A stretch of DNA of 64,000 nt from Halorutilales archaeon Cl-col2-1 (GTDB taxonomy: Archaea; Halobacteriota; Halobacteria; Halobacteriales; Afararchaeaceae), in assembly GCA_041891055.1 (NCBI GenBank), contig CP169074.1:1792001-1856000 (forward strand), read 5' to 3'. Of the stretch, positions 12,767 through 60,049 are shown piece by piece; position 1 is the stretch's first letter; the number at the start of each line of letters is the position of its first letter. The translations under genes were made by a program, and so were the position numbers. The notes under the pieces were generated by a model. It saw only the letters and a program-made list of their open reading frames with translations. It was not told the DNA's origin and did not search any database.

Positions 12767-12868
12767 TTCGTCGATCTAAGATTTACGAGTCTTCAGAAAT
12801 CGGAGATTTCTGTGATGCAGAAAACTCCCAGAGTTTTCCAGCACAAGCAAATCGAAGATTTGCCTACG
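12767..12868 (+). repeat. Four-hairpin micro-insertion, 102 bp
   Basis: Near-identical to the reverse complement of 34958-35059; ends TACG. Confidence 0.88.
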
Positions 12869-12878
12869 CCTAAAGGCG

Positions 12879-12935
12879 TCCCCAGAACGCGGAGCGTTCT
12901 GCTGTGCGAACGAATCGCTACGCGATTCGTCAACG
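12879..12935 (+). repeat. Double-hairpin micro-insertion, 57 bp
   Basis: TC...AACG; homolog of 35062-35118. Confidence 0.88.
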
Positions 12936-13043
12936 CGTGTATCCTGCTGTGGAACCTATGATTGAATAGACTGGAGTAATTATCCGAACCCGACTCTACG
13001 TCATCTCAGACTCCTTGCTCCTAAAAAAACTAACGAGGAAATA

Positions 13044-15602
13044 ATGGATAACTCACTGTACAGATCGATCGTTGAAGAGAGTAACGACGGTGTCTTAGTC
13101 GCACGGGACGGCGAGGTGGTCTACGCCAACCGACGTCTACGAGAGATGACCGGGTACTCCGAGGACGAGATAGTTGGATCGTCAAAGACTATGATAGTCG
13201 CCCCTGGGTATATCGACGAAGTCGAGGGATACCACCGAGCACGTATCGAAGGAAAGTCGGCTCCTAACCTGTATGAGGTAGAGATTCAAACACGCGACGG
13301 CGACCCAGTCCCCGTCGAACTTTCGGTCAGCCGAGTTAAACACGAGGGGGAACCGGTGTCAGTCTCTTTCTGGCGTGAAATCACCGAGAGGAAGGAGAAG
13401 AAACGCGAGCTACAAGATCTCAAGCACGAGTACGAGTCAGTATTCGAGAACGTTCAGGACGCCCTCTTCCTACTTGATGTTGACGAGGGCGGTACGGTTC
13501 GGTTCCAGCGGTTTAACGAGCAGGAGGAGGAGTACACGGGGAAGTCGACAGAGGAAGTCCGCGGAAAGACACCTGTCGAGGCTTTCGGAGAGGATATCGG
13601 ATCAGAGCTACGGTCGAACTACCGACAATGTATCGAACGCTGTGAGACGGTAGTCTACGAGGAGGAGCTGACTCTCGGCGGCAAAACCCGTGTCTGGCAG
13701 ACGAAGCTAACACCCGTCGTCGTCGACGGAGAGGTCGAGAAGATTGTCGGTGCGGGACGTGACATCACCGAACTCAAGGAGTACGAGGAAGAGCTCGAAA
13801 GTGCCCGGAAGAGGTTACGTGTACTATTCGATGAGGCACCCGACGCGATGGCTATCCACGACTCCGAGGGTGAGATTCTCGACGTCAACCAGGCAGCCGT
13901 CGAGTATCTCGGCTACTCTAGAGACGGTCTCCTTTCTATGAATATCTCCGATTTCGAGGTGGAAGAGACGAAGGAAGACCTGCGTGAGATGTGGTCGGAT
14001 ATGGAGACCGGAGAAACCGCAAAGCTCAAAACCAAACATGAGCGCAAAGACGGATCAACTTATCCCGTCGAGGTCTGGATATCGAGGATAGAAGTCCATG
14101 GCAAGCCACGGTATTTCGCACTCGCGCGTGACATCACTGAGCGCAGGGAGTACGAGAAGGAGATGGAGGAGAAGAATGCCTTACTCTCGACACTCTTCGA
14201 GGCGTTACCCATCGGGGTGCTGGCTGAGGACGAATCACGCAACGTCCTGGAGATCAACCAACAGCTGTTCAGTATCTTTGGTATTCAGGAGGACTCAGAC
14301 GAAGCCGTCGGAAGGGACTGTGAGAAAATGGCAGAGGAACTCAAAGACATCTTCGTCGACTCTGACGGCTTCGTCGAACGTATCAACAGTATAGTTGAGA
14401 ACCAGAAACCTGTTGACAACGACGAACTCGAACTCGAAGACGGACGTATCCTCGAACGTACCTACCGACCTATCGAGATGCTCGGTGACGACGGACATCT
14501 CTGGATCTACCGTGACATCACTGAGCGAAGGGAGTACGAGAGCGATCTTCGACACGCACGCGAGGAGCTTCGCCAGATCATAGACCTCGTCCCGGACATG
14601 ATATTCGCCAAGGACAGAGAAGGTAAGTATCTCCTCGCCAACAAGAAGACTGCCGAGGTCTACGGACTTACTCCTGAGGAGGTCGAGGGATCGTTCGAGA
14701 AGGATGTGATACCCGATCCCGAGGACTCCGAGGAGTACAGACAGGACGACATAGAAGTCATCGAGTCGGGTGAGCCGAAGGATATTCCCGAGGAGGAGAT
14801 AACCACCGCGGACGGCGAGACACGTCTACTCCAGACTACGAAGATACCCTACAAGGTGCCCGGCACCGGCGAGGACGCTGTTCTCGGATACGCGCGTGAC
14901 GTCACCGAACTCAAGGAGTACGAGACTGAACTCGAAGAGCAGCGTGACAACCTCGAACTCCTCAACCAGGTCGTCCGTCACGACATACGTAACGATCTTC
15001 AGCTCGTCTTAGCTTATGCCGACGCATTAGATATGTACGTCGAAGAAGGAGGACAGGGTTACATAGAGAAGGTTCTAGATGCGGCACGTGACGCCGTCGA
15101 CATCACCACGACTGCACGTGACGTCACCGAGGTGATGCTCAAGTCGGAGTCTGACAGACGTCCGGTGAGTCTGAGATCCACTCTTGAGGACAAGGTTGAC
15201 GACGCGAGGTCGAACCACGAGGACGCCCTTATAACCATAGACGGTTCTGTCCCCGATATCGATGTCCTCGCAGACGACATGCTGGAGTCGGTCTTCAGGA
15301 ACCTCCTAAATAATGCCATACAGCACAACGACAAGGAGGTCGCCGAGGTCAGCGTCTCAGTGGCTGTCGAGGACGGAGACGCCGTGGTAAGGATCGCCGA
15401 CAACGGACCCGGAGTTCCTGACAAACTCAAACAAGAGATATTCGAGGAGGGTGAGATGGGTATCGAAAGCAGAGGAACGGGTCTCGGACTCTATCTTGTC
15501 GACACTCTCGTAGACGGCTACGGTGGCGAGGTCTGGGTCGAGGACAATCCCGACGAGCCTGAGGGATCAGTATTTAAAGTCAGGTTTCAGAAAGCCGAGT
15601 GA
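13044..15602 (+). CDS. Multi-PAS sensor histidine kinase
   Basis: About five PAS/PAC repeats ending RDITE; VRHDIRND; DNGPG; GTGLGLYLV. Confidence 0.93.
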   Translation: MDNSLYRSIVEESNDGVLVARDGEVVYANRRLREMTGYSEDEIVGSSKTMIVAPGYIDEVEGYHRARIEGKSAPNLYEVEIQTRDGDPVPVELSVSRVKHEGEPVSVSFWREITERKEKKRELQDLKHEYESVFENVQDALFLLDVDEGGTVRFQRFNEQEEEYTGKSTEEVRGKTPVEAFGEDIGSELRSNYRQCIERCETVVYEEELTLGGKTRVWQTKLTPVVVDGEVEKIVGAGRDITELKEYEEELESARKRLRVLFDEAPDAMAIHDSEGEILDVNQAAVEYLGYSRDGLLSMNISDFEVEETKEDLREMWSDMETGETAKLKTKHERKDGSTYPVEVWISRIEVHGKPRYFALARDITERREYEKEMEEKNALLSTLFEALPIGVLAEDESRNVLEINQQLFSIFGIQEDSDEAVGRDCEKMAEELKDIFVDSDGFVERINSIVENQKPVDNDELELEDGRILERTYRPIEMLGDDGHLWIYRDITERREYESDLRHAREELRQIIDLVPDMIFAKDREGKYLLANKKTAEVYGLTPEEVEGSFEKDVIPDPEDSEEYRQDDIEVIESGEPKDIPEEEITTADGETRLLQTTKIPYKVPGTGEDAVLGYARDVTELKEYETELEEQRDNLELLNQVVRHDIRNDLQLVLAYADALDMYVEEGGQGYIEKVLDAARDAVDITTTARDVTEVMLKSESDRRPVSLRSTLEDKVDDARSNHEDALITIDGSVPDIDVLADDMLESVFRNLLNNAIQHNDKEVAEVSVSVAVEDGDAVVRIADNGPGVPDKLKQEIFEEGEMGIESRGTGLGLYLVDTLVDGYGGEVWVEDNPDEPEGSVFKVRFQKAE

Positions 15603-15690
15603 ACCCCCTTTGGAGATGACGGAGTTGGATCTCGGTTTACTACATATTTCCGGGACAAGAAATATACGTTAATACTCAGATATTCATCCA

Positions 15691-17175: not shown

Positions 17176-17407
17176 TATGCTAAATGTTACTCGTGAATAC
17201 ATCGGTTATCAGGAAAAGATTCCCGACAACGCCATATACTAGGCATCTGGCGGATTCGAGTCAGAAGAGGCAGCCCAAACCGGATGGGAGAACCGCAAGG
17301 GCTATCGACATACACGGGAAAAACCTGACACTCCGTCGAGTAACACCTCCGGCAAGCCCCGGGATGTAGCCTCTCGCGGTGAATAGTAGTAGATAACCCG
17401 CTTAGTC

Positions 17408-17914: not shown

Positions 17915-18131
17915 GTTTGATCTCCCGCGACGAATCCAACCATACCTGCTGTTAGAGTTCCCATATCTCTAATTAAGCTCGGGGCACTTCAACCCTCCAA
18001 GTAGTTGTACCCAGTTCGAGTCCTTTTCGGAGTTTTTCGGACGACTATGACTGGCAACAGAGTTTAGAGATGTCGATCCGTAGTCGAAGACTGATCCGTA
18101 CCATACCCAAACCAATACCCGAAACTGAGAC

Positions 18132-19076: not shown

Positions 19077-19257
19077 CCTCACGTACGTAGATGTCGCCTC
19101 CATCCATTGGCTCGACTTTCGGGGCAAGAAATATATGTTGGTACTGTGATACGTTATCAAACTCCATCCCTCCCTCGACAGGGGGTCACGCTCCGAGCAC
19201 TCGAGTATTCAGGCACTATTCCATCACGATGTGGTGTAGAAAACTCAAAGGACGAAG

Positions 19258-24313: not shown

Positions 24314-24319
24314 AACTAG

Positions 24320-33093: not shown

Positions 33094-33145
33094 GTAGGCG
33101 GTACGTCGCCGAGCGGTTTGAATATCTCGAAATGGATGGAGTAAG

Positions 33146-33193
33146 TCTCCAGAACTTGTTCTGGATGGCACGTCAATCGAAGATTGACATACG
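33146..33193 (+). repeat. Double-hairpin micro-insertion, 48 bp
   Basis: TC-tccagaac/gttctgga-tggca-cgtcaatc gaa gattgaca-TACG. Confidence 0.75.
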
Positions 33194-33244
33194 TCTCAGA
33201 TAGTGAACTACCCCACCCTACTCGCTCACGGCTAACGCCGTTCG

Positions 33245-33464
33245 TCTCAAAATCTACGAGTTTGAGGGCTCGCTAATCGGAGATTGGCGAACGCTCCTTG
33301 AGGGTGTCGTCAGAAGTGGAGCTTCTGACTGCTCACAAATCGTAGATTTGTGATGTCTCTGAGGAGACCTCAGAGGCTCGTGAACTTTCGTTCACGATGG
33401 GGCTTCCTGTTTCAACGACGTTGTCAGACTACGTCTGACAGCCTGTCGAGGTTACCTCGACAAA
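33245..33464. repeat. Four double-hairpin micro-insertions in the IS right end
   Basis: 33245-33293 (+, 49 bp), 33307-33355 (+, 49), 33356-33399 (+, 44), 33419-33464 (-, 46). Confidence 0.88.
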
Positions 33465-34665
33465 CGCACTTTGCATCCACGACGGTGGACGACCCACCAG
33501 TCGCGGACGTAGGGAGTGCAGTCTCCGCAGGCGTGACTTCGGCGTGTCCCACGCCTAACTCTGAAAGACCGCGTTGTAGCACGTTGTAGGCGGCGTTCTC
33601 GTCGCGGTCGGTCTCGAACCCACAGGTCGGGCAGGAATGTTCGCGCACCCACAGTTCTTTCTCAACCTCAACCCCGCACTCGGCACACTCTTGGGTCGTG
33701 CCCTCGGGTTCGACTTTCACGAAGTGCGTGTCCTCGCGGTCGCACTTGTATTCGAGGAAGTCGATGAACGTCCGCCACGACGCCGACGCTCTGTTGCGAC
33801 TATTCGACGGCAGTTGCATCATCTCGTGAACGTCAAGGTCTTCCACGGCTACGAGGTCGTACTCACGAGCGTAGTACGCTGAGAGTTTGTGCAGGAAGTC
33901 GCGACGCTTCCGTACAATACGAGCGTGGATGCGGGTCACGCGGCGGCGTTGCTCGTGCCAGTTCTTCGACCCCTTCACCTTGCGACTCAGCGCTCGTTGC
34001 TCGCGTTCGAGCCGTTCGTACTCGTCTTCGAGGTTGAGACTTCCGACCATCGTGCTGTCGGTGTCGTGAGCGTACTTGATGATGCCCACGTCGATACCAA
34101 CCATATCCTCGCGGTCAACCTCATCCAGAGCGGGTTTCTCGGACGCGCCGTCTTCGGTTTCGATGCCGAAGGTGGCGTACCACTCACCCGTTTTCTCTTG
34201 TTTGACCGTGACCTGTTTCACGCGGGCGTCGTCGGGGATGTCGCGGTGGAGGTGTATCGGCATCTCACCAATCTTGGAAAGGGAAAGCACGGTCTGGTCA
34301 CTCGTGTTCTTGAGTTCGAAACCAGACTGGTTGTAGGTGAGGCTCCGATACTCTCGCGGACTCTTCCACTTGAGCATCCCAACCTTGTGCCCATTCTCCT
34401 TCTTTTCTTTGAGGCGGTCGAGGTTGTCGCTGACGCGGCGGGCAACCATTTGCAACACTTTCGAGTACACGTCGGTGAGGTCGTCCCACCAATCTTTCAG
34501 GTCGGGAAGCATATTCTGCATCGCGGTGTACGATAGGTACTCGTCCGTGTTGCGGAGTTCGTACAAGTAGTGGTTGTAGAGTTGCCTACAGGCATCTATA
34601 TGCCGTTCTAGTTCAGATTGAACGGCTTCGTCGGGGTCGATGCGATATCTGTAGTTGTAGTTCAT
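33424..34665 (-). CDS. tnpB: RNA-guided endonuclease TnpB
   Basis: RuvC GIDVG / VEDL / DRDENAA; CxxC...CxxC zinc finger. Confidence 0.95.
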   Translation of the reverse strand: MNYNYRYRIDPDEAVQSELERHIDACRQLYNHYLYELRNTDEYLSYTAMQNMLPDLKDWWDDLTDVYSKVLQMVARRVSDNLDRLKEKKENGHKVGMLKWKSPREYRSLTYNQSGFELKNTSDQTVLSLSKIGEMPIHLHRDIPDDARVKQVTVKQEKTGEWYATFGIETEDGASEKPALDEVDREDMVGIDVGIIKYAHDTDSTMVGSLNLEDEYERLEREQRALSRKVKGSKNWHEQRRRVTRIHARIVRKRRDFLHKLSAYYAREYDLVAVEDLDVHEMMQLPSNSRNRASASWRTFIDFLEYKCDREDTHFVKVEPEGTTQECAECGVEVEKELWVREHSCPTCGFETDRDENAAYNVLQRGLSELGVGHAEVTPAETALPTSATGGSSTVVDAKCVCRGNLDRLSDVV

Positions 34666-34669
34666 CGTG

Positions 34670-34828
34670 TTACTCGTCTTGGTCGTCGGTTTCGTCGGGG
34701 TCGCTGACGCGGATGACTTTCACGTCTGCGCCGCGCCAGTCTTTGGGAACTGTAACGTGGGCACTCCCGCCGAACTCCTTCGCTTCACGGTCAATGATTT
34801 CTTCGCCTTCTAGTTCGAATGTGCCCAT
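34670..34828 (-). CDS. DUF2080-like transposon-associated small protein, 52 aa
   Basis: Hand-read MGTFELEGEEIIDREAKEFGGSAHVTVPKDWRGADVKVIR. Confidence 0.8.
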   Translation of the reverse strand: MGTFELEGEEIIDREAKEFGGSAHVTVPKDWRGADVKVIRVSDPDETDDQDE

Positions 34829-34888
34829 ACACAAATATATATTGGGCATATATTATATGTTTCGGTGGAGAATGACGATAGCTTACGG

Positions 34889-35251
34889 CTGTTGCAAGAT
34901 CTACGATCTTGCTATCCACAAATTCGGAGAATTTGTGACTGTATCCCCGACCTACTGCGTATGAAAATCGAAGATTTACTTGTGCTAGAAAACTCTACGA
35001 GTTTTCTGCATCACAGAAATCTCTGATTTCTGAAGACCCGTGAATCTTAGATTCACGGACGTCCTCAGAACGCGAAGCGTTCTGATGTGCGAACGAGACG
35101 CGAAGCGTCTCGTCAACGCTACTCACTCGCTTCGCTCGTTGTGTTGCCGTCCGAAAATCTTCGATTTTCGTGATCTCGGAAATCTACGATTTCCGACGGT
35201 ACGCGAATCCTTGATTCGCTCGATCACGAGAGAGCGAAGCTCTCTCGAACG
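34889..35251. repeat. Four hairpin micro-insertions in the IS left end
   Basis: 34889-34938 (-, 50 bp), 34958-35059 (-, 102), 35062-35118 (+, 57), 35150-35251 (+, 102). Confidence 0.88.
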
Positions 35252-35297
35252 ACTCCTTAAGGACGGGGACTTAGCCTGTAAGAGTGAAAATCAGAAG

Positions 35298-44154: not shown

Positions 44155-44616
44155 ATGTCAGACTCCTCGAAGTCGAACGAAAAGGACTGGGAGAACGGTC
44201 TCAAGAGTGAGCCCGTGACGACGTATGTGAGTTACGAGACGAAGGAGATCTGGAAACAACACGCCGAAAACCTCGATACCACACTCAGCCGGTTCGTCGA
44301 GATGATGGTAAACGCGGGAAGATCGATGTACGACGACACCGCTCCTGAGGGATACGAGGACTCGGATCTCGTCTCGGCGAACCGTGAGATTCAGGCTCTC
44401 AGAGACCGGATCGAGGAGATAGAGTCACATCCTGAGTCGGCTGATCCCATAGATGTCTATACGTCTCTCGGCGAGGGCTATGTCACCGTAGACGAGATAT
44501 CCGAGTCGATGGAGTACTCCGAGTCGGAGGTCTACGAGGCACTTCAAACTCTTCTCGACGAGGAGGTCGTCGAGTACGACCCCATGAGGAACGCATACAG
44601 GAGGACGGATGCGTAG
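44155..44616 (+). CDS. RHH plus wHTH protein (DUF5805-like) coupled to the recombinase
   Basis: VTTYVS...W..HA..L.TTLSRFV; overlaps the next gene. Confidence 0.7.
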   Translation: MSDSSKSNEKDWENGLKSEPVTTYVSYETKEIWKQHAENLDTTLSRFVEMMVNAGRSMYDDTAPEGYEDSDLVSANREIQALRDRIEEIESHPESADPIDVYTSLGEGYVTVDEISESMEYSESEVYEALQTLLDEEVVEYDPMRNAYRRTDA

Positions 44617-45721
44617 GATAGGTGCTCAAGACCCACTCGACGAGGTCGAGGATCTCGAAGATCACGACTTCATCTCTTACTTCATCGAGGACATGGAAGC
44701 GTATGGCAAATCTTCCTCAACGCTCTACGAGTACGAACGTGTTCTGCGTGACTTCGACGACTTCACTGACACCCACCACGCGCGCGCCTCGAGACGTGAC
44801 TGCATGGGCTATATCTCCGACCTCCGTAGTCGGGGACTCTCAGCGTCGACGGTCTCGACCTATGCCTCCTATCTCCACAGATTCTACTCGTACCTCGTCA
44901 AGGCGGACGAGTTCCCCCACTCTAACAACCCGATGGCTCTCGTCACTGAGGAGATGAGCGAGGGAATAGACAAGAATCCCCAGAGACGTGAACTCTCGGT
45001 CACCGACGTCACTGAGTTCCTCAAGACTGTGAATCACCCGAGGGACAGATGTATACTCGTCACCCTCTTCAAGACGGGGATGCGCGCGGGTGAGCTTTCG
45101 AACCTCAAACTCGAAGACATCTCACTGACTACTGACCTCGACGATGAGTTCGGTCTCGGTGGAAACGCGCGTCTGAGTCGGAACTCACTCCTCGTCGTTA
45201 GCGACAGAGACGGAAACAAACGTCTGCGTGACACTCTGATCCCCATCGACGACGAGCTCAGGAAAGAGCTCGTGAGATGGCTGCGTGTGCGTCCCGAGAA
45301 TGGTAGTTCTCGTGGGCGCGTGAATCAGAAGATTCACGAACGTCTCGAAGCGGAAGCTTCGATGGCTCGGAAATCAGAGATTTCCGAACGTCCCGAGACT
45401 GACTCGGACGCCGTCTTCGTCTCTCTCAGCAGAGCGTCCGAGACGGGAAGTCTCAGCCCTGAGGCGGTCTCTTCCCTGATGAGGAAGTACACTCAGCCTT
45501 ACGGCTGGTGGGAGGAGGGAAGAGGTCTTGAGGAAAACGTCACCCCGCATTACTGCCGCCATTTCTTCACGACCCATCTCAGAGAGGCTTCGGGAGACGA
45601 CGCCCTCGTCAAGTACCTAAGAGGCGATGTCGGCGGAGACGTGATCGAGACCTACACCCATCAGTGGGGTGACAACGTCCGTGAGAGCTATGAGAAGTAC
45701 ATATACCGTCTCGTTTCCTGA
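44609..45721 (+). CDS. XerA-like tyrosine recombinase with a 33-aa insertion
   Basis: TGMRAGEL, TPHYCRHFFTT, terminal catalytic Tyr (ETYTH). Confidence 0.9.
   Translation: MRRIGAQDPLDEVEDLEDHDFISYFIEDMEAYGKSSSTLYEYERVLRDFDDFTDTHHARASRRDCMGYISDLRSRGLSASTVSTYASYLHRFYSYLVKADEFPHSNNPMALVTEEMSEGIDKNPQRRELSVTDVTEFLKTVNHPRDRCILVTLFKTGMRAGELSNLKLEDISLTTDLDDEFGLGGNARLSRNSLLVVSDRDGNKRLRDTLIPIDDELRKELVRWLRVRPENGSSRGRVNQKIHERLEAEASMARKSEISERPETDSDAVFVSLSRASETGSLSPEAVSSLMRKYTQPYGWWEEGRGLEENVTPHYCRHFFTTHLREASGDDALVKYLRGDVGGDVIETYTHQWGDNVRESYEKYIYRLVS
45292..45390 (+). repeat. Two tandem double-hairpin micro-insertions (51 + 48 bp), in frame
   Basis: Each unit TC...AACG; removal restores WLRVRPETDSD. Confidence 0.9.
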
Positions 45722-46075: not shown

Positions 46076-46153
46076 GGTTCCGGTGTATAAAGACTCGGGT
46101 GACTTCTACCTTTCGTCCGTATATTTATGTTCTGCCGACACGAGTTACAGCCG

Positions 46154-48319
46154 ATGGGTAATCTCTCGAAGCTCTTCTCGCCTTCACGTGTCGCAGTAAT
46201 TGGAGCGACCGATAGGGAGGGGTCTGTCGGACGTGTGGTGACACAGAACCTCGTCTCGGGGTTCGAGGGAGAGGTGATCGCTGTCAATCCCAACAGGGAC
46301 GAGGTTCTCGGACTTCCGACTTACACCGACGTCGGCTCCGTTCCGGGTGAGATAGACCTGGGCGTCGTAATAGTGCCGGCTCCCGTGGTTCTGGAGGTTC
46401 TCGAAGAGATGGGGAAAGCTGGCGTCACGAACGCCGTCGTCATAACCGCGGGGTTCTCGGAGGCGGGCGACGAGGGGAAGGCGAGAGAGGAGAGGCTGAA
46501 GGAGATCGCCGACGAGTACGGAATCAGCCTCGTAGGTCCCAACTGTATAGGAATAGTAAGTAGTGATTCGGGTCTCAACACGACCTTCACGACCGTGAAA
46601 TACTCGAAGGGAGCCACGTCTTTCATGAGCCAGTCGGGGGCTCTCATAGGTGCAGTCCTCGAATGGGCACCCTCTCACAACATGGGTTTCAACCAAGTCG
46701 TCTCTCTCGGCAACAAGGCTGTACTCGACGAGACCGACTTCATCGAGGACTGGAGTGACGACCCCGACACCGACGTAGTGATGGCATATCTCGAAAGCAT
46801 TGAGGACGGGAGACGTTTCATCAAGAAGACACGTGAGGCTGTGACTGAGACTCCCGTAGTCGCTCTCAAGGCGGGTAGGTCCGAGAAAGGATCGAGGGCG
46901 GCGTCTTCACACACGGGGGCTCTCGCTGGGAGCGACGAGGCGTACGACTCCGCCTTCAGACAGTCAGGCGTCATAAGAGCTGAGACACTTCTCGAACTCT
47001 TCGACTACAGTGACACGCTCGCTGATCAGCCGGTTCCCGAGAAGGACGGCTTAGCAGTGGTCACCAACGGTGGAGGACCCGGGGTCATAGCTACCGACGC
47101 GGTCAGTGACTCGATCGTCTCGTTCGCGGATCTGAGCCACGAGACCGTCGACTACCTCGAAGACCGTCTCCCCGAATCGGCTGTCGTTGAGAATCCTCTC
47201 GACATAATAGGAGACGCAGACGTCGACAGGCTGTCTGACTCACTCGATGCAGTTCTTGGAGATCCTGACGTCGGCGGTGCTCTCGTCATAGTCACTCCGA
47301 ACGGAGTCCTCGACTACAGAGAAGCCGTCGATCCGATAGAGGAAATCCAGAGACGTCACTCGAAGCCCGTAGTGACTTGTATGATGGGCTCCAACGACGA
47401 GACGAGCCAGAGGCTGAGTCAAGCAAACCTACCCGACTTCTTCGATCCTGAGAGGGCGGTCGGGAGCTACGAGGCTCTTGAGAGGTACAGACGTATAAGA
47501 CAGAGATCCCGGGAAGAGAGACACGTCACGGAGTTCGACGTCGACGAGGGGAGGGCACGCGGGATAATCCGAGAAGCCGTCGAAGAGGGTCGTAACCGTC
47601 TCGGCGTCGAGTCGATGGAGATACTCGATGCCTACGGGATACCCACTCCCGACGGCACTGTCGTCGAGACAGCCGACGAAGCCGACGAGGCGGCACGCAG
47701 TATCGACTCCGAAACCGGTACTGTCGTCCTCAAGATAGTCAGCCCCGACATAAGCCACAAGACAGACGTCGGCGGTGTCAGAACGCGTGTCTCCCCAGAC
47801 GACGTCAGAGACGTCTTCTCGGAGATGGTCGAGGAGGTTCGAGACAGACGTCCCGAAGCCGAGATAGAAGGTATTCTCGTACAGGAATCTGTCGACGTCT
47901 CGAAGGGCGAGGAGGTCATAGTCGGTGCGAGAAGCGATCCTCAGTTCGGTCATCTCCTCGTGTTCGGTCTCGGAGGTGTATTCGTCGAGGTCTTCAAGGA
48001 CGTCTCTTTCCGTGTCCCACCTGTCACTCAGCGAGAGGCGGAGGAGATGACCCGCGAGATAGAGTCGGCACCTCTCCTCCGAGGTGCGAGAGGACGTGAC
48101 CCCCTCGATACCGACGGTGTCACTGAAGTCATACAGAGGCTGTCGCAGATGGTGACCGAGATAGATGCGATCGAAGAAGTCGAGGCTAATCCTGTCTTCG
48201 TGGGAACTGGCGGCGTTCAGAAATCTTCTATTTCTGATTCTGAGGACGTCAACCGAAGATTGACGGATGTCGTTGCGCTTGACTTCCGTATGACGGTCGA
48301 CGAGAGCCGGGTCGGTTAA
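46154..48319 (+). CDS. Acetate-CoA ligase (ADP-forming), fused subunits
   Basis: VGPNCIG, SQSGA, SHTGALAG, HKTDVGGV. Confidence 0.92.
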   Translation: MGNLSKLFSPSRVAVIGATDREGSVGRVVTQNLVSGFEGEVIAVNPNRDEVLGLPTYTDVGSVPGEIDLGVVIVPAPVVLEVLEEMGKAGVTNAVVITAGFSEAGDEGKAREERLKEIADEYGISLVGPNCIGIVSSDSGLNTTFTTVKYSKGATSFMSQSGALIGAVLEWAPSHNMGFNQVVSLGNKAVLDETDFIEDWSDDPDTDVVMAYLESIEDGRRFIKKTREAVTETPVVALKAGRSEKGSRAASSHTGALAGSDEAYDSAFRQSGVIRAETLLELFDYSDTLADQPVPEKDGLAVVTNGGGPGVIATDAVSDSIVSFADLSHETVDYLEDRLPESAVVENPLDIIGDADVDRLSDSLDAVLGDPDVGGALVIVTPNGVLDYREAVDPIEEIQRRHSKPVVTCMMGSNDETSQRLSQANLPDFFDPERAVGSYEALERYRRIRQRSREERHVTEFDVDEGRARGIIREAVEEGRNRLGVESMEILDAYGIPTPDGTVVETADEADEAARSIDSETGTVVLKIVSPDISHKTDVGGVRTRVSPDDVRDVFSEMVEEVRDRRPEAEIEGILVQESVDVSKGEEVIVGARSDPQFGHLLVFGLGGVFVEVFKDVSFRVPPVTQREAEEMTREIESAPLLRGARGRDPLDTDGVTEVIQRLSQMVTEIDAIEEVEANPVFVGTGGVQKSSISDSEDVNRRLTDVVALDFRMTVDESRVG
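48214..48267 (-). repeat. Double-hairpin micro-insertion, 54 bp, in frame
   Basis: Minus strand TC-cgtcaatc/ggttgacg...cagaaat/atttctg-AACG. Confidence 0.8.
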
Positions 48320-48324: not shown

Positions 48325-50061
48325 TTAGTCCTTAGACGACGGTACTGGTGTCAGAGGTTTGTTTTTCCCGTCCCTGAGGCGCACCGTGACAACGGTTCCT
48401 CGCGGCTCCCTGTCTTCGAACTCCAGGTCTCCACCTGATCTCTTGACTATCCAGTGGACGAGCCAGAGTCCGAGACCGCTTCCGTGGTATAAGGGCTCTA
48501 TCTCCCGTTCGTCGCCGAGAACCCCGATGTCCGAATCGGGTATCCTTGATCCGTTGTCCGAGACTCTTATCTCGACCGAGGTGTCGGATTTCTCGACCTC
48601 GACAGACACACGTGGCGTCTCCGTGTCGTTGTGCTCGACAGCGTTGTTGACTAACTCGTCTACTGCACGCGGTATCTGAGGGACTACGTAGGCTGTCGTC
48701 TCTGAGTCTGGGGTGTGAACCTCTATCTCAGCTTCGGGGTATCTCTCCTCATACTCCGAGAGTCTCCTCTCGACTGTCTCGGCGATGTCGACCTCCTCGG
48801 GCGGCGACCTGTCGGAGATTATCTCGACTAACTCGCGTTCCTTGTCAGTGGTGTCGAGCAGACGGTTGCCGACCTCACGTATCTTCTCGGCATATCTTCT
48901 CTCGTCGTCTGTCAGGGACTCCGACTCAGAAAGTTCCTCCGAGTAGCCGAGTATTATGTTCATCTTGTTATGCATGTTGTGGCGGAGGACACGGTCGAAG
49001 ACCTCGAGGTGCTTCTGTCTCTCCTTGAGTTCGCTGTTGAGGACTCGAAGCTCCTTCTCTCTCTTAATACGGTCGAGTGTCGCCTTTGCGTTTCTCGCGA
49101 GTGTCTCGACGAAACGCACGTCTGAGTCGTCGAAAGCTGCCTTGTGTGTCTCACCGACGCTCACGGTTCCGTACCCCTCTATCGGGACGTACATCACCGA
49201 TCTAACGTCTTTCCTGTCGTACTCCGTCTCGACTTCACGTATGTCGTCGAAGACGTATGTCTCCGACTCCCTGTACGCTTTCCCAGCAAGGCTGTCGTGT
49301 ACAGGATACGTCGGCGTTCCGCCTCTGACTTCCTCCGTCTCTGACGTTGACGACACAATAACGAGCTCTTCACTGTCGTCGTCTGTGAAACGCACTCCGT
49401 TTGCGGGGAACCCGAGTACATTCTTCGTCGCCTTGACGATTCTCTGAGCCACCTCGTCGGCGTCGTCGGCGTCTATTAGCTCACGTGTCGTCTCGTGTAG
49501 GCTAGTGAGTATCTCTTCGCTCCTCTGTAGTCTCTCGACGTTCTTCCTCTGGTCTATGGCAAGCTTGAGAAGAGACGCGACTGTCTTTCCTGCGTTTACG
49601 GCGTGGTCGTCGTACTCAGTCTCCTCGCTCGACTCGGGTGCTCCTGTTCCTATGAGTCCGTGCTCACCCACGGGAATCATTATCCCAGACCCCACCGGGA
49701 GTTCGGGATGAACTTCGCTGACATCGTAGATGCTTATGCCGTCACTCTCGAACTGATCCCATTCCAGGTCGTGTCTTCTAATCTCCGTAGGAGCGAACTC
49801 GTCTGCCGACTCGGTTGCTTTTACGAGATTCAGACGTTCTTCCTCCTCATCACGTATCCAGCAAGCCCCGAACGGCAGATCGACTATGTCTGTGAGAGAA
49901 TCCACGGCGATCTCACACAGCCTGTCGATATCTTTCACCCTGTCGTCCTGGAGCCTCCGCGCTGCCTCGTAGACAGACCTGACGGTCTTACCCGGGTCTG
50001 CGTCGAAGTCTGTGCCGGAGTCAGAGCCTGAGGACTGTCCCTCCGAGCCTTTATCCCTCAT
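48325..50061 (-). CDS. GAF-domain sensor histidine kinase
   Basis: Two GAF-like domains, LRHNMHN, HGSGLGLWLV. Confidence 0.9.
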   Translation of the reverse strand: MRDKGSEGQSSGSDSGTDFDADPGKTVRSVYEAARRLQDDRVKDIDRLCEIAVDSLTDIVDLPFGACWIRDEEEERLNLVKATESADEFAPTEIRRHDLEWDQFESDGISIYDVSEVHPELPVGSGIMIPVGEHGLIGTGAPESSEETEYDDHAVNAGKTVASLLKLAIDQRKNVERLQRSEEILTSLHETTRELIDADDADEVAQRIVKATKNVLGFPANGVRFTDDDSEELVIVSSTSETEEVRGGTPTYPVHDSLAGKAYRESETYVFDDIREVETEYDRKDVRSVMYVPIEGYGTVSVGETHKAAFDDSDVRFVETLARNAKATLDRIKREKELRVLNSELKERQKHLEVFDRVLRHNMHNKMNIILGYSEELSESESLTDDERRYAEKIREVGNRLLDTTDKERELVEIISDRSPPEEVDIAETVERRLSEYEERYPEAEIEVHTPDSETTAYVVPQIPRAVDELVNNAVEHNDTETPRVSVEVEKSDTSVEIRVSDNGSRIPDSDIGVLGDEREIEPLYHGSGLGLWLVHWIVKRSGGDLEFEDREPRGTVVTVRLRDGKNKPLTPVPSSKD

Positions 50062-51460: not shown

Positions 51461-51557
51461 TCTGTAAATCTTTGATTTACAGGCACGCGAATCGAAGATT
51501 CGCGAACGTCTCAAACTCTACGAGTTTGAGGGCTCGGAAATCAGAGATTTCCGAACG
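51461..51557 (+). repeat. Two tandem double-hairpin micro-insertions (48 + 49 bp)
   Basis: 51461-51508 and 51509-51557, each TC...AACG. Confidence 0.9.
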
Positions 51558-52899
51558 CTCGTTGAGAATGGGGCTTGTCCATGTACTCAACCTCTAACCT
51601 CTCGGTGGAGGAACTACCCTCACTCGGTTTCAGTGTACCGGACTTAAGGGCAAGTTGACACGTTGCCCGTCCGTCCTGTGACTTTTGCACACGACGGACG
51701 TGTTGCGAATCGTTAGATTCGCATACGTCTGCAAAGCTTTGCTTTGTAACATAACGAAGACCGACATTCTTAGAAGCGTTGTAGTCTGCGTCTACCGAAT
51801 ACCCACACTCTCGACACTCAAAGTCGTGTTTCGTCCTGCGGTTACTTCGGTCGGTGTGTCCACAGCGAGAACAAGTCTGACTCGTGTACTCTGGATTCAC
51901 CGACTCGACAGAAACGCCGTACTCTTCGGCTTTGTACTCCACGAACGCGACGAACTGATTGAACGCCCACTGCTGAAACTCTTTGTTGTTCGAGATACGC
52001 TCACGGATGCCGTCAAGCTCCTCGAACACAATAGTAGAACAGTCGTAGCGTACAGCCTCTTCTACGATTTCGTTAGCCCACTTGTGGTACTTCTGATTAC
52101 TCCACTGGCTGAAACGGTCGCCCATACGTTCTATGACCTCGTGAGCGCGACGCGAGCCGTTTCGTTGGAGTGACGCACGCCTACTCTCGTATTCGTCACG
52201 TTCGTGGTTGATATGGTCGCTTGAACCTACGAACCGCCCCGTAGAGGTGACGGCGAAGCTACCTGTGCTGTTCAGGTCTACACCGAGAACCGTTCGCAAA
52301 TCTTCAATCTGCGAGCCATCGAAGCTCCCGCTTCGAGACGTTCCGCTCTCGGTTTCTCCTACGTCCTCTTCTTTCACGACTGAGATATGCAGGTAGTAGT
52401 CGCCGCCCCTGTGGTGTAGCGTCGCCTCTTTCCGTCCCCACTCTTCGGAAAGGTACTCTGTCTGGGGGTTGTCGCCCGTTTCGTCAATCACGAAGTCGGC
52501 TTGTACACGCCCGTCCACGGTTGCGAGAGTACAGCCTTCGTCGGTATACGTGACGGTTCGGTAGTCGTAGGCGACGAACCAACTCTGGAACGTGGGTTTG
52601 GTGGCTTGTTCGCCTTCTTTCCACCGGTTGATTACCTGTTGTAGGCTGTCTACGGCGTAGTCACGCGCCTTCTGTATCAGTCCGGTGTTGAGTCCGGTCT
52701 GTTCCTTGATGTCATCGTAGGTCTGTTCGTGTAGCCACGTCTTGCGCGTGTCTATGTGACCGCCGTCAGTTCGGTTGTTCCATGCGTAGTCTACGGTGTA
52801 CTGACATGCTTCTCGGAACGCCCTGAACGTCTCTCGTAGGCGTTCCTCGTCGGAGCCGTCAACGTCAAGCTTGACCTGTACAGTACGCCGTAGCTCCAT
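51541..52899 (-). CDS. tnpB: RNA-guided endonuclease TnpB with two in-frame insertions
   Basis: LGVDLN / VFEEL / DADYNAS; zinc finger; insertions at 51701-51751 and 52291-52338. Confidence 0.93.
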   Translation of the reverse strand: MELRRTVQVKLDVDGSDEERLRETFRAFREACQYTVDYAWNNRTDGGHIDTRKTWLHEQTYDDIKEQTGLNTGLIQKARDYAVDSLQQVINRWKEGEQATKPTFQSWFVAYDYRTVTYTDEGCTLATVDGRVQADFVIDETGDNPQTEYLSEEWGRKEATLHHRGGDYYLHISVVKEEDVGETESGTSRSGSFDGSQIEDLRTVLGVDLNSTGSFAVTSTGRFVGSSDHINHERDEYESRRASLQRNGSRRAHEVIERMGDRFSQWSNQKYHKWANEIVEEAVRYDCSTIVFEELDGIRERISNNKEFQQWAFNQFVAFVEYKAEEYGVSVESVNPEYTSQTCSRCGHTDRSNRRTKHDFECRECGYSVDADYNASKNVGLRYVTKQSFADVCESNDSQHVRRVQKSQDGRATCQLALKSGTLKPSEGSSSTERLEVEYMDKPHSQRAFGNL

Positions 52900-53138: not shown

Positions 53139-53152
53139 GAGTTGACGGGCTG

Positions 53153-53224
53153 TCACAAAATCTCCGATCTTGTTGGCTCGCTAATCTATGATTAGCGGGC
53201 ACGTAAATCTTAGATTTACGAACG
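53153..53224 (+). repeat. Triple-hairpin micro-insertion, 72 bp
   Basis: TC-hairpin-tggct-hairpin-ggca-hairpin-AACG. Confidence 0.85.
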
Positions 53225-54160: not shown

Positions 54161-54161
54161 T

Positions 54162-57015: not shown

Positions 57016-57058
57016 CGTAACAAATAGATACTTATCCGAGGAGGACGACCTACGGAGT

Positions 57059-57238
57059 ATGCAGGAAACCTGGGTAAACGTCGAATGTAACAGCTGTGGA
57101 GAGACTTGGGAGGTAAAGGTCTCGGAGCTCCCGGTCGACAACGGAACGTTCAGGTGTAAGGAGTGTGGCAACGAGTCTCCCGTCAAGGAGTTCCTCAAGA
57201 CTGAGAAGGATCTCGAAGTCTACGACGAACTCAAGTAG
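57059..57238 (+). CDS. Small zinc-finger protein, 59 aa
   Basis: Hand-read CNSCG...CKECG. Confidence 0.75.
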   Translation: MQETWVNVECNSCGETWEVKVSELPVDNGTFRCKECGNESPVKEFLKTEKDLEVYDELK

Positions 57239-57250
57239 TACCGACTCATA

Positions 57251-57883
57251 TCACACCGCGTCGACTGCGGTCTCAAGTAGGTCAAGTGCACGTACGGCGT
57301 CGTCTCTCTCTACGACTATTATCGTCTCGGTGTAACACGAGGTGATGTCGACTATGTTTATCTCCTCCGACGTGAAACGTGATATCATGTACGACAGAAC
57401 ACCCGAGACATCGGTGATCTCCTCGGGCGACTCGACGACGATACCCGTGAGGTCGTGTCTCTCCTCGACTACCTCGCCCTCGCCGTCCTCGATACCCTCC
57501 CTGACCTCGTCGGCGTAGGTGTCGTCTGTGACTACCGTGGTGTAACTCCTCCCACGAACGAGATGGAAGAAGCCCGACTCTATACCTAAGTCTCCCACAC
57601 GTGTCGCCGTGAAAGAGACGACGTTTCCCCTCAGAGAGACCCTCGAACCGCCGAGCACCTCCCTTACCCTCTCGACGTTCTCGACACCGTCTTCGAGCTC
57701 GTCGCCGTACCTTCTCAGTGCCGTCGTCACCGCCTCTATGTTGACGTCTCCGCCGACCTCCTCTTCGACCTCGGGCTTTATCTTCCTCGCTAAAGCGCGG
57801 TAGTTGACGACGCCCTCACGGAGACAGTCGAGCATATACGGATAACGAGATACGACATCGCGGCAGTCCTGTGCGAGTGACAT
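57251..57883 (-). CDS. ACT-domain putative regulator
   Basis: GVVNYRALARKI N-terminus, ACT-like C-terminus; divergent from argG. Confidence 0.7.
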   Translation of the reverse strand: MSLAQDCRDVVSRYPYMLDCLREGVVNYRALARKIKPEVEEEVGGDVNIEAVTTALRRYGDELEDGVENVERVREVLGGSRVSLRGNVVSFTATRVGDLGIESGFFHLVRGRSYTTVVTDDTYADEVREGIEDGEGEVVEERHDLTGIVVESPEEITDVSGVLSYMISRFTSEEINIVDITSCYTETIIVVERDDAVRALDLLETAVDAV

Positions 57884-57989
57884 ACATGTAGTACGTCATA
57901 ACAGACTAAAATACTGTGGTTTTGAACTATATAAGTCATTAACGACCCAAATACAAAGACTTTAGTTCTTTTACGTCTTAGACTGAGGT

Positions 57990-59243
57990 ATGACAGAGAC
58001 AGATACACGTAAAGCAGTCCTCGCCTTCTCGGGAGGTCTCGACACGAGCGTCTGTGTTCCCCTTCTCAAGGAGGAGTACGGATACGACGAGGTCATTCCC
58101 GTAGTCGTCGACGTCGGACAGCCCGAGGAGGACATGGAGGAAGCCTACGAACGCGCTGAGGAGCTTGACCTCGATCTCCGTGTCGTCGAGGCGAGCGAGG
58201 AGTACGCCGAGGAGTACATACTCCCCCTCATAAAGGCAAACGGAAGCTACGAGGGTTACCCGATGGGCACGAGCATAGCGCGTCCCGTCATAGCGCGCCA
58301 CTGTCTCGACATAGCCCTCGAAGAGGACGCCGACGGTCTCGCACACGGCTGTACGGGAAAGGGCAACGACCAGCTCAGATTCGAGGCGGTCTGGCGTGAG
58401 TCCGACCTGGAGATAATTGCTCCGATGCGTGAGAAGAACCTCACTCGTGAGTGGGAAATAGAGTACGCACAGGATCACGGCATGAGCGTCCGAGCGACGA
58501 AGGAGGAGCCGTGGTCGATAGACTCGAACCTCTGGAGCCGTTCGATAGAGGGAGGAGACCTCGAAAACCCGTCGAACGAGCCTCCTGAGGAGATCTTCGA
58601 GTGGACGGCGTCTCCCGTCGATGCCCCCGACGAACCCGAGGTAGTCGAGATAGAGTTCGAGGAGGGCAGACCCGTCGCTCTAAACGTCGTCGAGGGAACC
58701 TCGACTGGCTCTCAGACTCCGTCTGGGAATGGAAACGAGATGGATCTTCTCGAACTCATAAGGGAGCTACACGACGTCGCGGGGAAACACGGCGTCGGAA
58801 GAAACGACATGATGGAGGATCGCGTCTTAGGTCTCAAGGTGCGCGAGGTCTACGAGCACCCTGCGGCGACAGTCCTCCTCAAGGCACACGAGGATCTCGA
58901 GAGCCTCGTCCTCACACGTTCACAGCTCAAGTTCAAGTCGGGGGTCGAGGAAGAATGGAGCGAACTCGCCTACAAGGGACTCGTCAACGAGCCTCTCTAC
59001 GACGACCTCAACGCCTTCATAGAGTCGACACAGGAGAACGTCACCGGAACCGTGAGGGTCAAGCTCCACAAGGGAACCGCACGCGTCGTCGGACGTGAGA
59101 GTCCCTACGGTCTCTACGGCGAGGAGATGGTCTCGTTCGACACGGGAAGCGTGACACAGGACATAGACCAGACCGACGCCGTCGGCTTCTCGAAGTACCA
59201 CGGCATACAGGGACGGTTCAGGAAGAAGTTCAAGGATCAGTAG
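57990..59243 (+). CDS. argG: Argininosuccinate synthase with a 15-aa insertion
   Basis: AFSGGLDTS, HGCTGKGNDQLRFE, SIDSNLW. Confidence 0.97.
   Translation: MTETDTRKAVLAFSGGLDTSVCVPLLKEEYGYDEVIPVVVDVGQPEEDMEEAYERAEELDLDLRVVEASEEYAEEYILPLIKANGSYEGYPMGTSIARPVIARHCLDIALEEDADGLAHGCTGKGNDQLRFEAVWRESDLEIIAPMREKNLTREWEIEYAQDHGMSVRATKEEPWSIDSNLWSRSIEGGDLENPSNEPPEEIFEWTASPVDAPDEPEVVEIEFEEGRPVALNVVEGTSTGSQTPSGNGNEMDLLELIRELHDVAGKHGVGRNDMMEDRVLGLKVREVYEHPAATVLLKAHEDLESLVLTRSQLKFKSGVEEEWSELAYKGLVNEPLYDDLNAFIESTQENVTGTVRVKLHKGTARVVGRESPYGLYGEEMVSFDTGSVTQDIDQTDAVGFSKYHGIQGRFRKKFKDQ
58687..58731 (+). repeat. Double-hairpin micro-insertion, 45 bp, in frame
   Basis: TC-gtcgagg gaa cctcgac-tggct-ctcagac tcc gtctggg-AATG. 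Confidence 0.85.
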
Positions 59244-59344
59244 TCACCGCCCTTCGTAGAGGCGGTCTCGTAGATCCAGTAACGTAACTGCTTTGCGCAA
59301 ACCCACCCAAAGGCACAATATTCTGTGTATACATACTTTTCTGT

Positions 59345-59575
59345 ATGCCCAGCATCACGGTCAACGTAGACGCCGACCTCAAAGAGAGAATGGAAGAGCA
59401 TCCCGAGATCAACTGGAGTGAGGTAACACGCCAAGCCATACAGGAGAAAGTAGAGACACTTGAAGTAATGGACGAACTCACAAGTGAGAGCGAGCTTACC
59501 GAAACTGACGTTCAGGAGATTGCCGAGAAGATCAACGAATCCGGACGTAATCGCGTCGACAAGGATTTAGCCTAG
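59345..59575 (+). CDS. RHH antitoxin
   Basis: MPSITVNVD...HPEINWSEVTRQAI. Confidence 0.85.
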   Translation: MPSITVNVDADLKERMEEHPEINWSEVTRQAIQEKVETLEVMDELTSESELTETDVQEIAEKINESGRNRVDKDLA

Positions 59576-59584
59576 ACTCGAAAG

Positions 59585-60049
59585 ATGAAGCTGGTTATCG
59601 ACGCCAACGTCTTCAGATCTATGATCTGAAGGCTCATCAATCTCCGATTGAGGAACGTTGTTATCTCTGCACTTATCGCCGATTCAAAAACACGTGAACT
59701 CATCGTCACACTCGAACCCGATCTCCTGACACCTGAGTTTGTCCACGACGAAGTCGAGAATTACGAAGACATGATTGCAGTGAAGTCGGGCATGGAACCG
59801 GATCGAGTAGAACAGTTCATGGATCTCCTGTTCCAGTACATCGAGACGGCTCCTGCTGACGAATTCTATCCGTCGATTGAGACAGCGAAAGAAGCAATCG
59901 GATATACCGACCCGGACGATGTGCTCTACTTAGCCTGCGCGATCGAAAGAAATGCTGCTATCTGGAGCGATGACTCTGACTTCGACAGACAGGACTTAGT
60001 CGACACTTACTCGACGAGTGACGTAATCAACTCGTTTGATACAGTCTAA
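59585..60049 (+). pseudogene. PIN toxin interrupted by a 48-bp micro-insertion with an in-frame TGA
   Basis: MKLVIDAN|insert 59610-59657|VVISALIAD; TGA at 59627-59629. Confidence 0.85.

Follow-up and report, generated by a model that had tools for sequence, protein, structure and literature searches.

In a 64,000-nucleotide (nt) window of the genome of the Halorutilales archaeon Cl-col2-1 (contig CP169074.1, positions 1,792,001 to 1,856,000; here G000:C1:1792001-1856000), an initial annotation had described 21 short multi-hairpin units on both strands, alike in structure and variable in sequence, and had proposed that they were copies of a non-autonomous mobile element. We find that the units are real and belong to a well-supported family of mobile twin-hairpin elements, an archaeal variant of the REP/REPIN/RPE kind, and that they are indeed non-autonomous and mobile, since defined units of 45-51 nt have been gained or lost between close strains. 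Positions below are those of the window unless a contig is named. The genome under study (G000) comprises 2.06 Mb in four contigs at 55.4% G+C, and its nearest named relatives by ArgG, at 74-77% amino-acid identity, are Halorutilus salinus F3-133 and several metagenome-assembled genomes labelled Halobacteriales or 'Euryarchaeota archaeon'. For comparison we used a genome of the same genus, G001, whose contig C15 is syntenic with 32033-60500 at 91-98% identity, and Logan contigs from four metagenome runs (X1-X4) of three studies; X2 and X3 resemble a G001-type strain, and their independence from G001 is not assured.

On re-reading, each of the 21 positions carried one to four hairpins, and the window as a whole contains 34 perfect hairpins with a 3-nt loop and a stem of at least 7 bp, 27 of them with at least 8 bp. 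Genome-wide, stems around 3-nt loops number 139 at 8 bp, 141 at 9 bp and 3 at 10 bp, as compared with 33-43, 8-12 and 1-10, respectively, in three dinucleotide shuffles of C1, and the abrupt stop of this excess at 9 bp is itself non-random. Another 184 stems of 8 bp enclose 5-nt loops; these are probably hairpins with a 9-bp stem and a 3-nt loop (9/3) whose closing pair is open. When two or more hairpins (stem at least 7 bp, loop 3-5 nt, at most one mismatch) separated by gaps of no more than 12 nt were scored as a cluster, the window held 12 clusters against 0, 0, 1, 0 and 0 in five block shuffles, and C1 held 109 against 6-12, the hit rate in shuffled DNA, which had been named at the outset as a check on the family, being far lower. 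A covariance model trained on 16 units, of which the window contributed one, recovered 17 of the 21 positions at E<=0.001, with weaker matches at 12879 (E 0.025), 33356 (E 0.19), 35062 (E 0.11) and 58687 (E 0.053). The sole match to Rfam in the window at gathering thresholds was a tRNA (7511-7583), and no described RNA family lay over the units. The coordinates first given for the units need small corrections: the unit in the acetyl-CoA synthetase gene spans 48216-48269 instead of starting at 48214, and those at 33419, 34958 and 52291 are canonical on the minus strand.

The canonical unit follows the plan nCG^TC-stem(7-9)-loop(3, sometimes 4-5)-stem'-(T)GGC-(T/A)CG-nn-AATC-loop-GATT-nn-CG-A-ACG^, where the caret marks the unit boundary. 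Across the genome 65 such units were collected (62 distinct; 31 on the plus and 34 on the minus strand), with lengths of 43-57 nt and a mode of 48-49, and such hairpins strung together make up the forms of 72 and 102 nt and the longer arrays. The end motifs proposed by the initial annotation hold: (C/T)G precedes the unit, which starts with TC or TT and ends with AACG, TACG or GATG. The 6-mers most often found ahead of hairpin 1 are ACGTCC (11/62) and AACGTC (10/62), and TGATGT and TAGTGT variants occur too. The opposite strand of a unit starts with CGTT and ends with GACG, such that the order CGTY-hairpin...hairpin-RACG is read from either strand, which makes the unit a quasi-symmetric inverted pair, or dimer, of tagged hairpins. 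A T.G pair can extend the 5'-proximal hairpin beyond its perfect core, in hairpin 1 in 39 of 62 units; in hairpin 2 the corresponding position is, on the canonical strand, C.A in 41 of the 62 units, and a G-C comes next in 42.

It had been claimed that the structure is conserved while the stems vary, and this is borne out, although the sequence is not free. Mean column identity across 49 units is 38% and all four pair types occur at the outer stem pairs; conservation is seen in the CGTY/RACG ends and the GGC linker, at the foot of hairpin 2 (TCG..CGA), and around the loop (the closing C-G pair and the adjoining AATC/GATT). Recognition by shape instead of sequence, which the initial annotation had proposed, is thus conjectural and somewhat overstated. 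Types of hairpin 1 and hairpin 2 are found in many combinations, and within the long-stem subfamily (CAGAACGC / ACGAATCGC; 12879, 35062 and copies elsewhere) paired changes separate the second stems of different copies. One measure comes from the fixed pattern TCG-NN-AATC-nnn-GATT-NN-CGA, in which pairing of the NN positions is not imposed and which is free of model-fitting bias: among its 43 copies the NN dinucleotides are complementary in 41, in 7 dinucleotide combinations. In an alignment of 72 distinct model-aligned copies from several genomes, which leans to structure because it was fitted to the model and holds both-strand matches at some loci, 95.9% of cells are paired as against 69.0% after shuffling (reached in 0 of 500 shuffles), 297 cells are changed on both sides as against 68, and 15 of 17 pairs show compensatory change as against 12.0 (reached in 3 of 500); a control with slid partners paired at most 52.9% of cells. 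Cells of the G-U type number 4 of 1192, and pairing confined to Watson-Crick pairs speaks for palindromic DNA and not for an RNA fold. The hairpins are not followed by a T-run.

Filled and empty sites show the mobility of the units. G001 lacks the 99 nt at 45292-45390 that make up both units of the recombinase gene, and lacks 48 nt each at 51461-51508 and 59610-59657, and metagenome contigs cross the same three places without the units (joints in Table 1). The X1 contig with the third joint is 2597 nt long and shows 36 differences in 2522 nt, i.e. the strains are 98.6% alike. Within the genome, 46 pairs of filled and empty sites were found at paralogous loci, with inserts mostly of 43-51 nt. 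Removal of a unit restores the host gene or hairpin, as had been claimed, in all the cases where this was tested (argG, the ORF, or open reading frame, with a PIN-like domain, and the empty sites of G001 and of paralogous loci). Larger differences occur as well: the 2.1-kb block 33144-35279, comprising a tnpB insertion sequence (IS) and all its hairpin clusters, corresponds to ~23 nt in G001, and at 53174-53195 G001 holds ~160-180 nt more units. Five units (48216, 51509, 51701, 52291 and 58687) are common to the window and G001.

Insertion sites follow (N)CG or TG, and the last 2-4 nt of the unit repeat the 2-4 nt that precede it (CG/ACG, GATG, ACA, GC or AAAG). Over 35 junction pairs, among which the paralogous copies are not independent, the overlap was 0 nt in 10, 1 nt in 2, 2 nt in 4, 3 nt in 3, 4 nt in 6, 5 nt in 7, 7 nt in 1 and 8 nt in 2. 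Such overlaps of 0-8 nt are compatible with the absence of a target duplication combined with a target that resembles the unit end, and the base differences seen beside junctions (AATG vs AACG; ACG vs TCG/TCA) lie within the 3-8% divergence. The insert at 45292-45390 is flanked on both sides by a repeated 13-nt host string, in which host sequence coincides with the first 11 nt of the unit. The idea that hairpin 1 was made there de novo from host sequence was rejected, as the other junctions overlap by at most 8 nt and TCCCGAGA-type stems are common in the family.

Units persist in genes only if the frame is kept, and otherwise the gene is broken. In the window, genes with persisting in-frame units encode the XerA-like recombinase, acetyl-CoA synthetase, two TnpB proteins and ArgG; elsewhere in the genome they encode SAM synthetase, PolB (in its intein region), a Hel308-like helicase, an aminotransferase, a phosphodiesterase and a thioredoxin-like protein. 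The unit in argG is 45 nt long and gives ArgG 15 additional residues with no counterpart in any of five relatives at 61-80% identity. In an AlphaFold model of ArgG built on a six-row alignment (mean pLDDT 61.3), the insert (residues ~234-248) is coil with pLDDT <50 between a strand (227-234) and a helix (253-266), which is too weak to claim a surface loop. The opposite outcome is seen at 59610, where removing the unit yields an ORF of 138 residues that is PIN-domain-like on a reading of its sequence; the window reads MKLVIDANVFRSMI followed by a stop, while the intact G001 version reads MKLVIDANVVISAL.... A 76-residue ORF at 59345-59575 precedes the interrupted one at 59585-60049, and together they look like a VapBC-type pair whose toxin gene would have been knocked out by the unit. 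Of the 122 clusters in the genome, 105 stand outside likely coding ORFs, although such ORFs make up 84% of the genome, and 17 stand within them, a few of these perhaps being chance hairpins. A preference for the sense strand within genes, suggested by the copies in the window, was rejected on the genome-wide count of canonical intragenic units (3 sense, 6 antisense). The whole amounts to an RPE-like phenomenon in an archaeon, in that argG and the genes for SAM synthetase, a helicase and other proteins tolerate in-frame palindromic DNA. The polymerase gene mentioned above, of family B (G000:C1:641670-646688), has Hint/intein and LAGLIDADG domains, and its unit lies within the intein region.

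The association of units with IS elements is strong, while targeting itself is unsettled. Clusters located in, or no more than 500 nt from, the 29 full-length tnpB ORFs number 46 of 122, although these ORFs occupy 3.2% of the genome, a ~12-fold enrichment. In one IS family a unit stands ~40 nt from the right end, and its copies differ there, having no unit, one unit, another unit or two units. We take this unit-bearing right-end region to encode the TnpB guide RNA, and the heavy colonization of such presumably guide-RNA-encoding, non-coding ends bears on how these nucleases and transposons are kept in check. A DDE-type IS (PF01609) is hit too: one intact, unit-free copy of 283 residues exists (C1:304610-305461), while four other copies (C1:368.5k, 1016k and 1299k, and C2:71k) carry 4-5 units each and have a truncated ORF. 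Several of the 21 listed units are not separate insertions but belong to the fixed make-up of IS copies, and the two hairpins at 34889 are a conserved component of the left end in an IS family and not a free unit. The left-end hairpins of tnpB IS elements share the 9/3/9 geometry of the units. Contig C2 of the genome is plasmid-like (116 kb, 49.6% G+C) and carries a PCNA homologue (locus L067, 818-1552), several tnpB copies and many units, and C2:58001-58223 is a nine-hairpin array.

A search for an HUH/Y1 transposase, which the initial annotation had recommended, gave one IS200-type TnpA, the IS of which has ends unlike those of the units, and no RAYT. The single intact TnpA (C1:979012-979418) scores 159.5 bits on NF033573 (cut-off 55) and 26 bits on the RAYT model (cut-off 80), and its gene lies ~50 nt from a six-hairpin block; G001 has 4 tnpA-type matches. 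The TNB domain gave 33 matches in the genome, and of the 29 full-length tnpB ORFs examined one adjoins a tnpA. At the tnpA-proximal end of this sole tnpA+tnpB IS stands a 210-nt element (C1:979411-979620, C1:533432-533642 and C2:51514-51724; short forms at C2:69929-70035 and C1:113559-113639), in which a G+C-rich outer hairpin (CCCCGCCC/GGGCGGGG) surrounds two AATC-type hairpins, and the long form of which nests two more units ending in AAAG. We also considered a REPtron-like arrangement, in which a single-copy gene is flanked by units. Of the 22 cluster pairs, 12 enclosed a tnpB; those checked by Pfam included one DDE transposase ORF, other pairs enclosed a PCNA homologue and a few unannotated ORFs, and no candidate for a new enzyme came up.

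The fixed pattern has 43 copies in G000 and 36 in G001, and is found in 6 of 39 other relatives with 1-8 copies each, with zero hits for a reversed-pattern control; in a sample of 401 genomes of the class it is present in 35, which, besides G000, G001 and G011 (5 copies), have 1-2 each. Covariance-model matches at E<=0.01, counted on both strands among the 150 candidates scored per genome, number at least 135 in G000, 140 in G001, 44 in G011, 29 in G035 and 7 in G020. At E<=1e-7, and with 37 candidates scored from each genome, at least 64 of 151 genomes sampled from the class (36 of 57 genera) have 1-7 matches. Five loci in other genera were checked by Pfam, of which three lie beside tnpB and two, with IS-end motifs, beside unrelated genes, and in IS copies of other genera a two-hairpin module stands at the same place, beside ...ctccttgagg. 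The module is thus widespread across the class, at low copy number and in company with IS1341-type elements, while this genus has amplified it strongly. In G011, which belongs to another family, a canonical unit (contig C17, locus L059, ~2190-2248) lies within the ORF directly downstream of a tnpA, a putative tnpB of a tnpA-tnpB IS, and the behavior of the units may therefore not be confined to this genus.

REP-like elements are well studied in the Proteobacteria, where they are explained by RAYT, a domesticated Y1 transposase. To our knowledge, no mobilizing enzyme is known for the CGTC-tagged REPs, the Rickettsia RPEs or the SMR-A of Haloquadratum. The REP/REPIN elements and the small repeats of Haloquadratum, which had been suggested as analogues from the start, are the right ones. 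With the REP/REPIN-RAYT systems the present units share a short hairpin with a 5' tetranucleotide tag, an inverted doublet as the replicating unit, tens to hundreds of mostly extragenic copies, a structure kept by compensatory change, and a proposed movement as single-stranded DNA by an HUH/Y1 enzyme. They differ in that their tag is CGTC/CGTT (CGTY) and not GTAG, and in that there is no RAYT, the only Y1 protein being the IS200-type TnpA inside an IS605-type element. In form, the nearest likeness is to the CGTC-tagged REPs and Rickettsia RPEs. As far as the available part of the account by Di Nocera et al. (2013; PMC3733652) goes, which deals with bacteria only and names archaea just twice, in its reference list, these too have an unpaired CGTC tag (TGTC as a variant) beside a hairpin with an 8-9 bp stem, form inverted dimers and clusters, lie mostly outside genes, though some copies sit in frame within housekeeping genes, and have no dedicated transposase gene flanked by repeats. 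The loops are mostly 3 nt here against 4-5 nt in that account, which also gives its elements a fixed A/T at the first two stem positions and a CCA tail, as opposed to the variable pairs and (T)GGC tail of the present units. Here, moreover, the partner hairpin has CGTT and the TCG..CGA foot, the host is an archaeon and the units cluster at tnpB IS elements.

In host and behavior the nearest systems are the Haloquadratum walsbyi SMR-A (HqIRS42/43/55) and PATEs, to which the family is probably related in its biology and the mechanism of which is called 'enigmatic' in the portion of Dyall-Smith et al. (2011; PMC3119063) that was available. By that text they are likewise haloarchaeal and transposase-free, with no clear target duplication and strain-specific insertions, and they are strongly tied to IS605-type transposons and near-terminal palindromes; a 52-bp PATE composed of termini only is apparently mobile. 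The SMR-A as described there are ~110 bp long, with prominent inverted terminal repeats and >95% identity per type, unlike the ~48-nt core, variable stems and only ~85% alike 102-nt forms found here; on this description, and not on sequence, our family would seem distinct from HqIRS42/43/55. PATE palindromes resemble the ends of their parent IS, while here IS ends and unit ends differ and have only the 9/3/9 geometry in common, and that portion says nothing of copies lying in frame within housekeeping genes. The available text of the Halorutilus description (PMC10134839) has no wording on repeats, palindromes, transposition or mobile elements, and no earlier description of the twin-hairpin family was found in the literature covered by our search, which left out subscription journals and ISfinder.

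As to how the units move, we infer, with about an even chance of being right, a REP/REPIN-like, CGTC-tagged element that is mobilized in trans as single-stranded DNA by an HUH/Y1 enzyme. The unit would travel folded into its two hairpins, and the enzyme would cut and rejoin at CG^TC and ACG^; the only candidate found is the IS200-type TnpA, which would also have to serve the ~30 tnpA-less tnpB elements. Insertion behind an (N)CG that resembles the 3' end of the unit would recreate the target, and a target recreated at each insertion would lead to the tandem arrays. The overlap between unit end and target would be expected under the IS200/IS605-like 'peel and paste' rule, by which targets resemble the right-end cleavage site. 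In terms of origin, the family may have been riding in the non-coding ends of haloarchaeal IS1341-type elements class-wide, and may have broken out and amplified in this genus. Unit orientation by GC-skew arm (10 plus and 22 minus at 200-1500 kb; 16 plus and 4 minus past 1600 kb) agrees, as a hint only, with the prediction of a lagging-strand mechanism acting on single-stranded DNA.

Several points weigh against this mechanism. The orientation counts include tandem and paralogous copies, which are not independent, and the replication origins are unmapped. RAYT (NF047646) has no match above its cut-off of 80 bits in either G000 or G001, the best scoring 25-32 bits, and the element-bearing genomes G035, G020, G010, G026 and G027, which are 78-91% complete, gave no Y1_Tnp match. 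The end hairpins of the IS that bears tnpA are G+C-rich (CCCCGCCC.., CCTCGGGC..) and its apparent ends are not CG^TC or AACG^, the tnpB IS families end in ...GGGGTAGTTnAC or ...AGGATGTCA and not in AACG, and no autonomous element with unit-type ends was found in the genome. The enrichment at IS elements could reflect survivorship in an 84%-coding genome rather than targeting. Finally, the overlap varies (0-8 nt, once 13 nt), which a site-specific nuclease explains no better than annealing or template switching would.

This last point leads to the strongest competitor, which we regard as possible although clearly less probable, namely that the units spread with no dedicated transposase and are carried along in replication or repair by gene conversion, by end-joining or by template switches that microhomology guides. 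A growing strand with ...(A)CG at its end would jump to a donor unit, copy it up to the ...ACG end and return, and one hairpin arm would template the other, keeping the arms perfect. The overlaps of at least 3 nt in 19 of 35 pairs and their variable length fit such a route, as do the 13-nt direct repeat at the integrase insertion, where the first 11 nt of the unit are identical to host sequence, the near absence of G-U or mismatch intermediates despite 297 double changes, the many combinations of hairpins 1 and 2, and the failure to find, in G000 and G001, an enzyme with matching ends or a RAYT; the bacterial CGTC-REPs are likewise reported without a dedicated transposase in the available part of PMC3733652. 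Set against this are the 10 of 35 junctions without overlap, three of them with perfectly matching flanks, and the sharp TC start and ACG end at unrelated targets, which suggest defined cleavage and not arbitrary switch points, and paralogous copies inflate the overlap counts.

A wider view, which we find speculative and on the whole doubtful, would have a class-wide haloarchaeal twin-hairpin family, REPIN-like without RAYT, spreading as single strands under the guidance of structure, with stem arms regenerated from one another; its members would be hyperparasites of mobile DNA that sit in the guide-RNA ends of TnpB elements, shred DDE transposase genes and add inserts of 15-33 residues to essential proteins. 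Regeneration of the arms would account both for covariation by Watson-Crick pairs alone and for the way in which hairpin modules mix freely. If true, it would offer the first tractable system for the movement of the 'orphan' CGTC-type REPs, RPEs and SMR-A.

It is rather improbable, in our judgment, that the units are structural modules of IS1341-type ends (end hairpins or guide-RNA scaffold) whose free copies are PATE-like remnants left by internal deletion of an IS. The concentration of clusters at tnpB genes (46/122), the presence in other genera of IS copies with this module in the identical position beside ...ctccttgagg, and the 52-bp terminal-only PATE of the accessible Haloquadratum account (PMC3119063) would all agree with it. 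The termini of the IS elements, however, are unlike those of the units, one IS copy lacks the module at the exact site while others have different units or two in tandem, and clean insertions of 45-51 nt with no IS sequence around them occur in the argG, recombinase, PIN, SAM synthetase, helicase and aminotransferase genes; the DDE-type IS, too, carries 4-5 insertions. That the hairpins are host-selected motifs (terminators, protein-binding or supercoiling sites) of merely apparent mobility is highly improbable: the location of 105 of 122 clusters outside likely coding ORFs, and the secondary roles of this sort reported for bacterial REPs in the part of PMC3733652 at hand, are outweighed by presence/absence polymorphism between strains 98.6% alike, insertions in essential genes, the disrupted PIN ORF, the about equal frequency of both orientations, Watson-Crick-only pairing and the lack of a T-run after the hairpins. 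An origin as a MITE of a DDE transposon was rejected on the variable length of the overlaps, the DDE IS that is present (PF01609) being a target and not a relative. The small 2.06-Mb genome, its single IS200-type TnpA, ~30 tnpA-less TnpB elements, at least 65 canonical units and the filled and empty alleles in near-identical strains make the mechanism of movement directly testable.

Table 1. Twin-hairpin units, host features and metagenome joints in the window (E, covariance-model E value; a strand of "." means none assigned)
Position	Strand	Feature	Remarks
12767..12868	+	Four-hairpin element, 102 nt, TT...TACG after CG	Homologue of 34958-35059; E 1e-9
12879..12935	+	Two-hairpin long-stem unit, 57 nt, TC...CAACG	Subfamily of 35062; weak match, E 0.025
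33146..33193	+	Unit, 48 nt, outside right end of tnpB IS	E 1.5e-17
33245..33293	+	Unit, 49 nt, in IS right-end region between ...ctccttgaggg and ...aactaccccaccctact	E 5e-22; empty in IS copy C2:39440
33307..33355	+	Unit, 49 nt, after TG, GATG end	E 6.6e-6
33356..33399	+	Unit, 44 nt, TC...GATG	Paralogous site C2:39498 empty; 4-nt GATG repeat at junction
33419..33464	-	Unit, 46 nt, at tnpB 3' end	E 3e-4
33424..34665	-	tnpB, IS1341-type, OrfB_IS605 and Cas12f1-like TNB; host IS	Domain matches
34889..34940	+	Hairpin pair kept in left end of IS family (also C1:13672, 1509713)	Conserved across IS copies
34958..35059	-	Four-hairpin element, 102 nt, ~85% identical to 12767-12868	E 6e-15
35062..35118	+	Long-stem unit, 57 nt	Paralogue of 12879; compensatory stem changes
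35150..35251	+	Four-hairpin array, 102 nt, TC...AACG	E 9e-14
44609..45721	+	XerA-like tyrosine recombinase gene, two in-frame units	
45292..45342	+	Unit, 51 nt, in frame in recombinase gene	Absent from G001 and X2, X3, X4 contigs
45343..45390	+	Unit, 48 nt, in frame in recombinase gene	Absent jointly with 45292; E 1e-19
45300->45400		Metagenome joint, 99 nt skipped	Runs X2, X3, X4
48216..48269	+	Decayed unit, 54 nt, in frame near C-terminus of ADP-forming acetyl-CoA synthetase (46127-48319)	Shared with G001
51461..51508	+	Unit, 48 nt	Absent from G001 and X2/X3 contigs
51457->51506		Metagenome joint, 48 nt skipped	Runs X2, X3; weak 25-nt-side joint in X1
51509..51557	+	Canonical unit, 49 nt, IS right end	Shared with G001; E 1e-25
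51541..52899	-	tnpB, Cas12f1-like TNB, intragenic units	
51701..51756	.	Two short hairpins (27 + 29 nt) within tnpB	Shared with G001; E 1e-3
52291..52338	-	Unit, 48 nt, in frame in tnpB, sense strand	Shared with G001; E 1e-15
53153..53224	+	Three-hairpin array, 72 nt, IS left side	Larger in G001
57990..59243	+	argG (argininosuccinate synthase), in-frame unit inside	
58687..58731	+	Decayed unit, 45 nt, 15 extra ArgG residues	In G001; missing in 5/5 more distant relatives
59585..60049	+	PIN-domain-like ORF, broken after codon 9 by unit 59610	
59610..59657	+	Unit, 48 nt, introduces in-frame TGA	Absent from G001 and X1, X2, X3 contigs; E 4e-16
59607->59657		Metagenome joint, 49 nt skipped, T between	Runs X1, X2, X3

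Two further model matches in the window were examined. The one at 8820-8866 is weak (E 1.3e-3) and intergenic, and is possibly a decayed unit that the initial annotation had not listed, and the one at 61672-61705 is an ordinary coding palindrome and was rejected as a unit. Other length differences were also seen between the strains. One lies at 48576-48788, in a minus-strand GAF histidine-kinase gene (48325-50061), where 16 nt in G001 and in the X2/X3 contigs stand in place of ~200 nt in the window and no hairpin units are involved. Conversely, in G001 (locus L051, 15480-17343) the stop codon of argG and the gene that follows are separated by an A+T-rich insertion of 1.86 kb, which is missing from the window (59230-59241).

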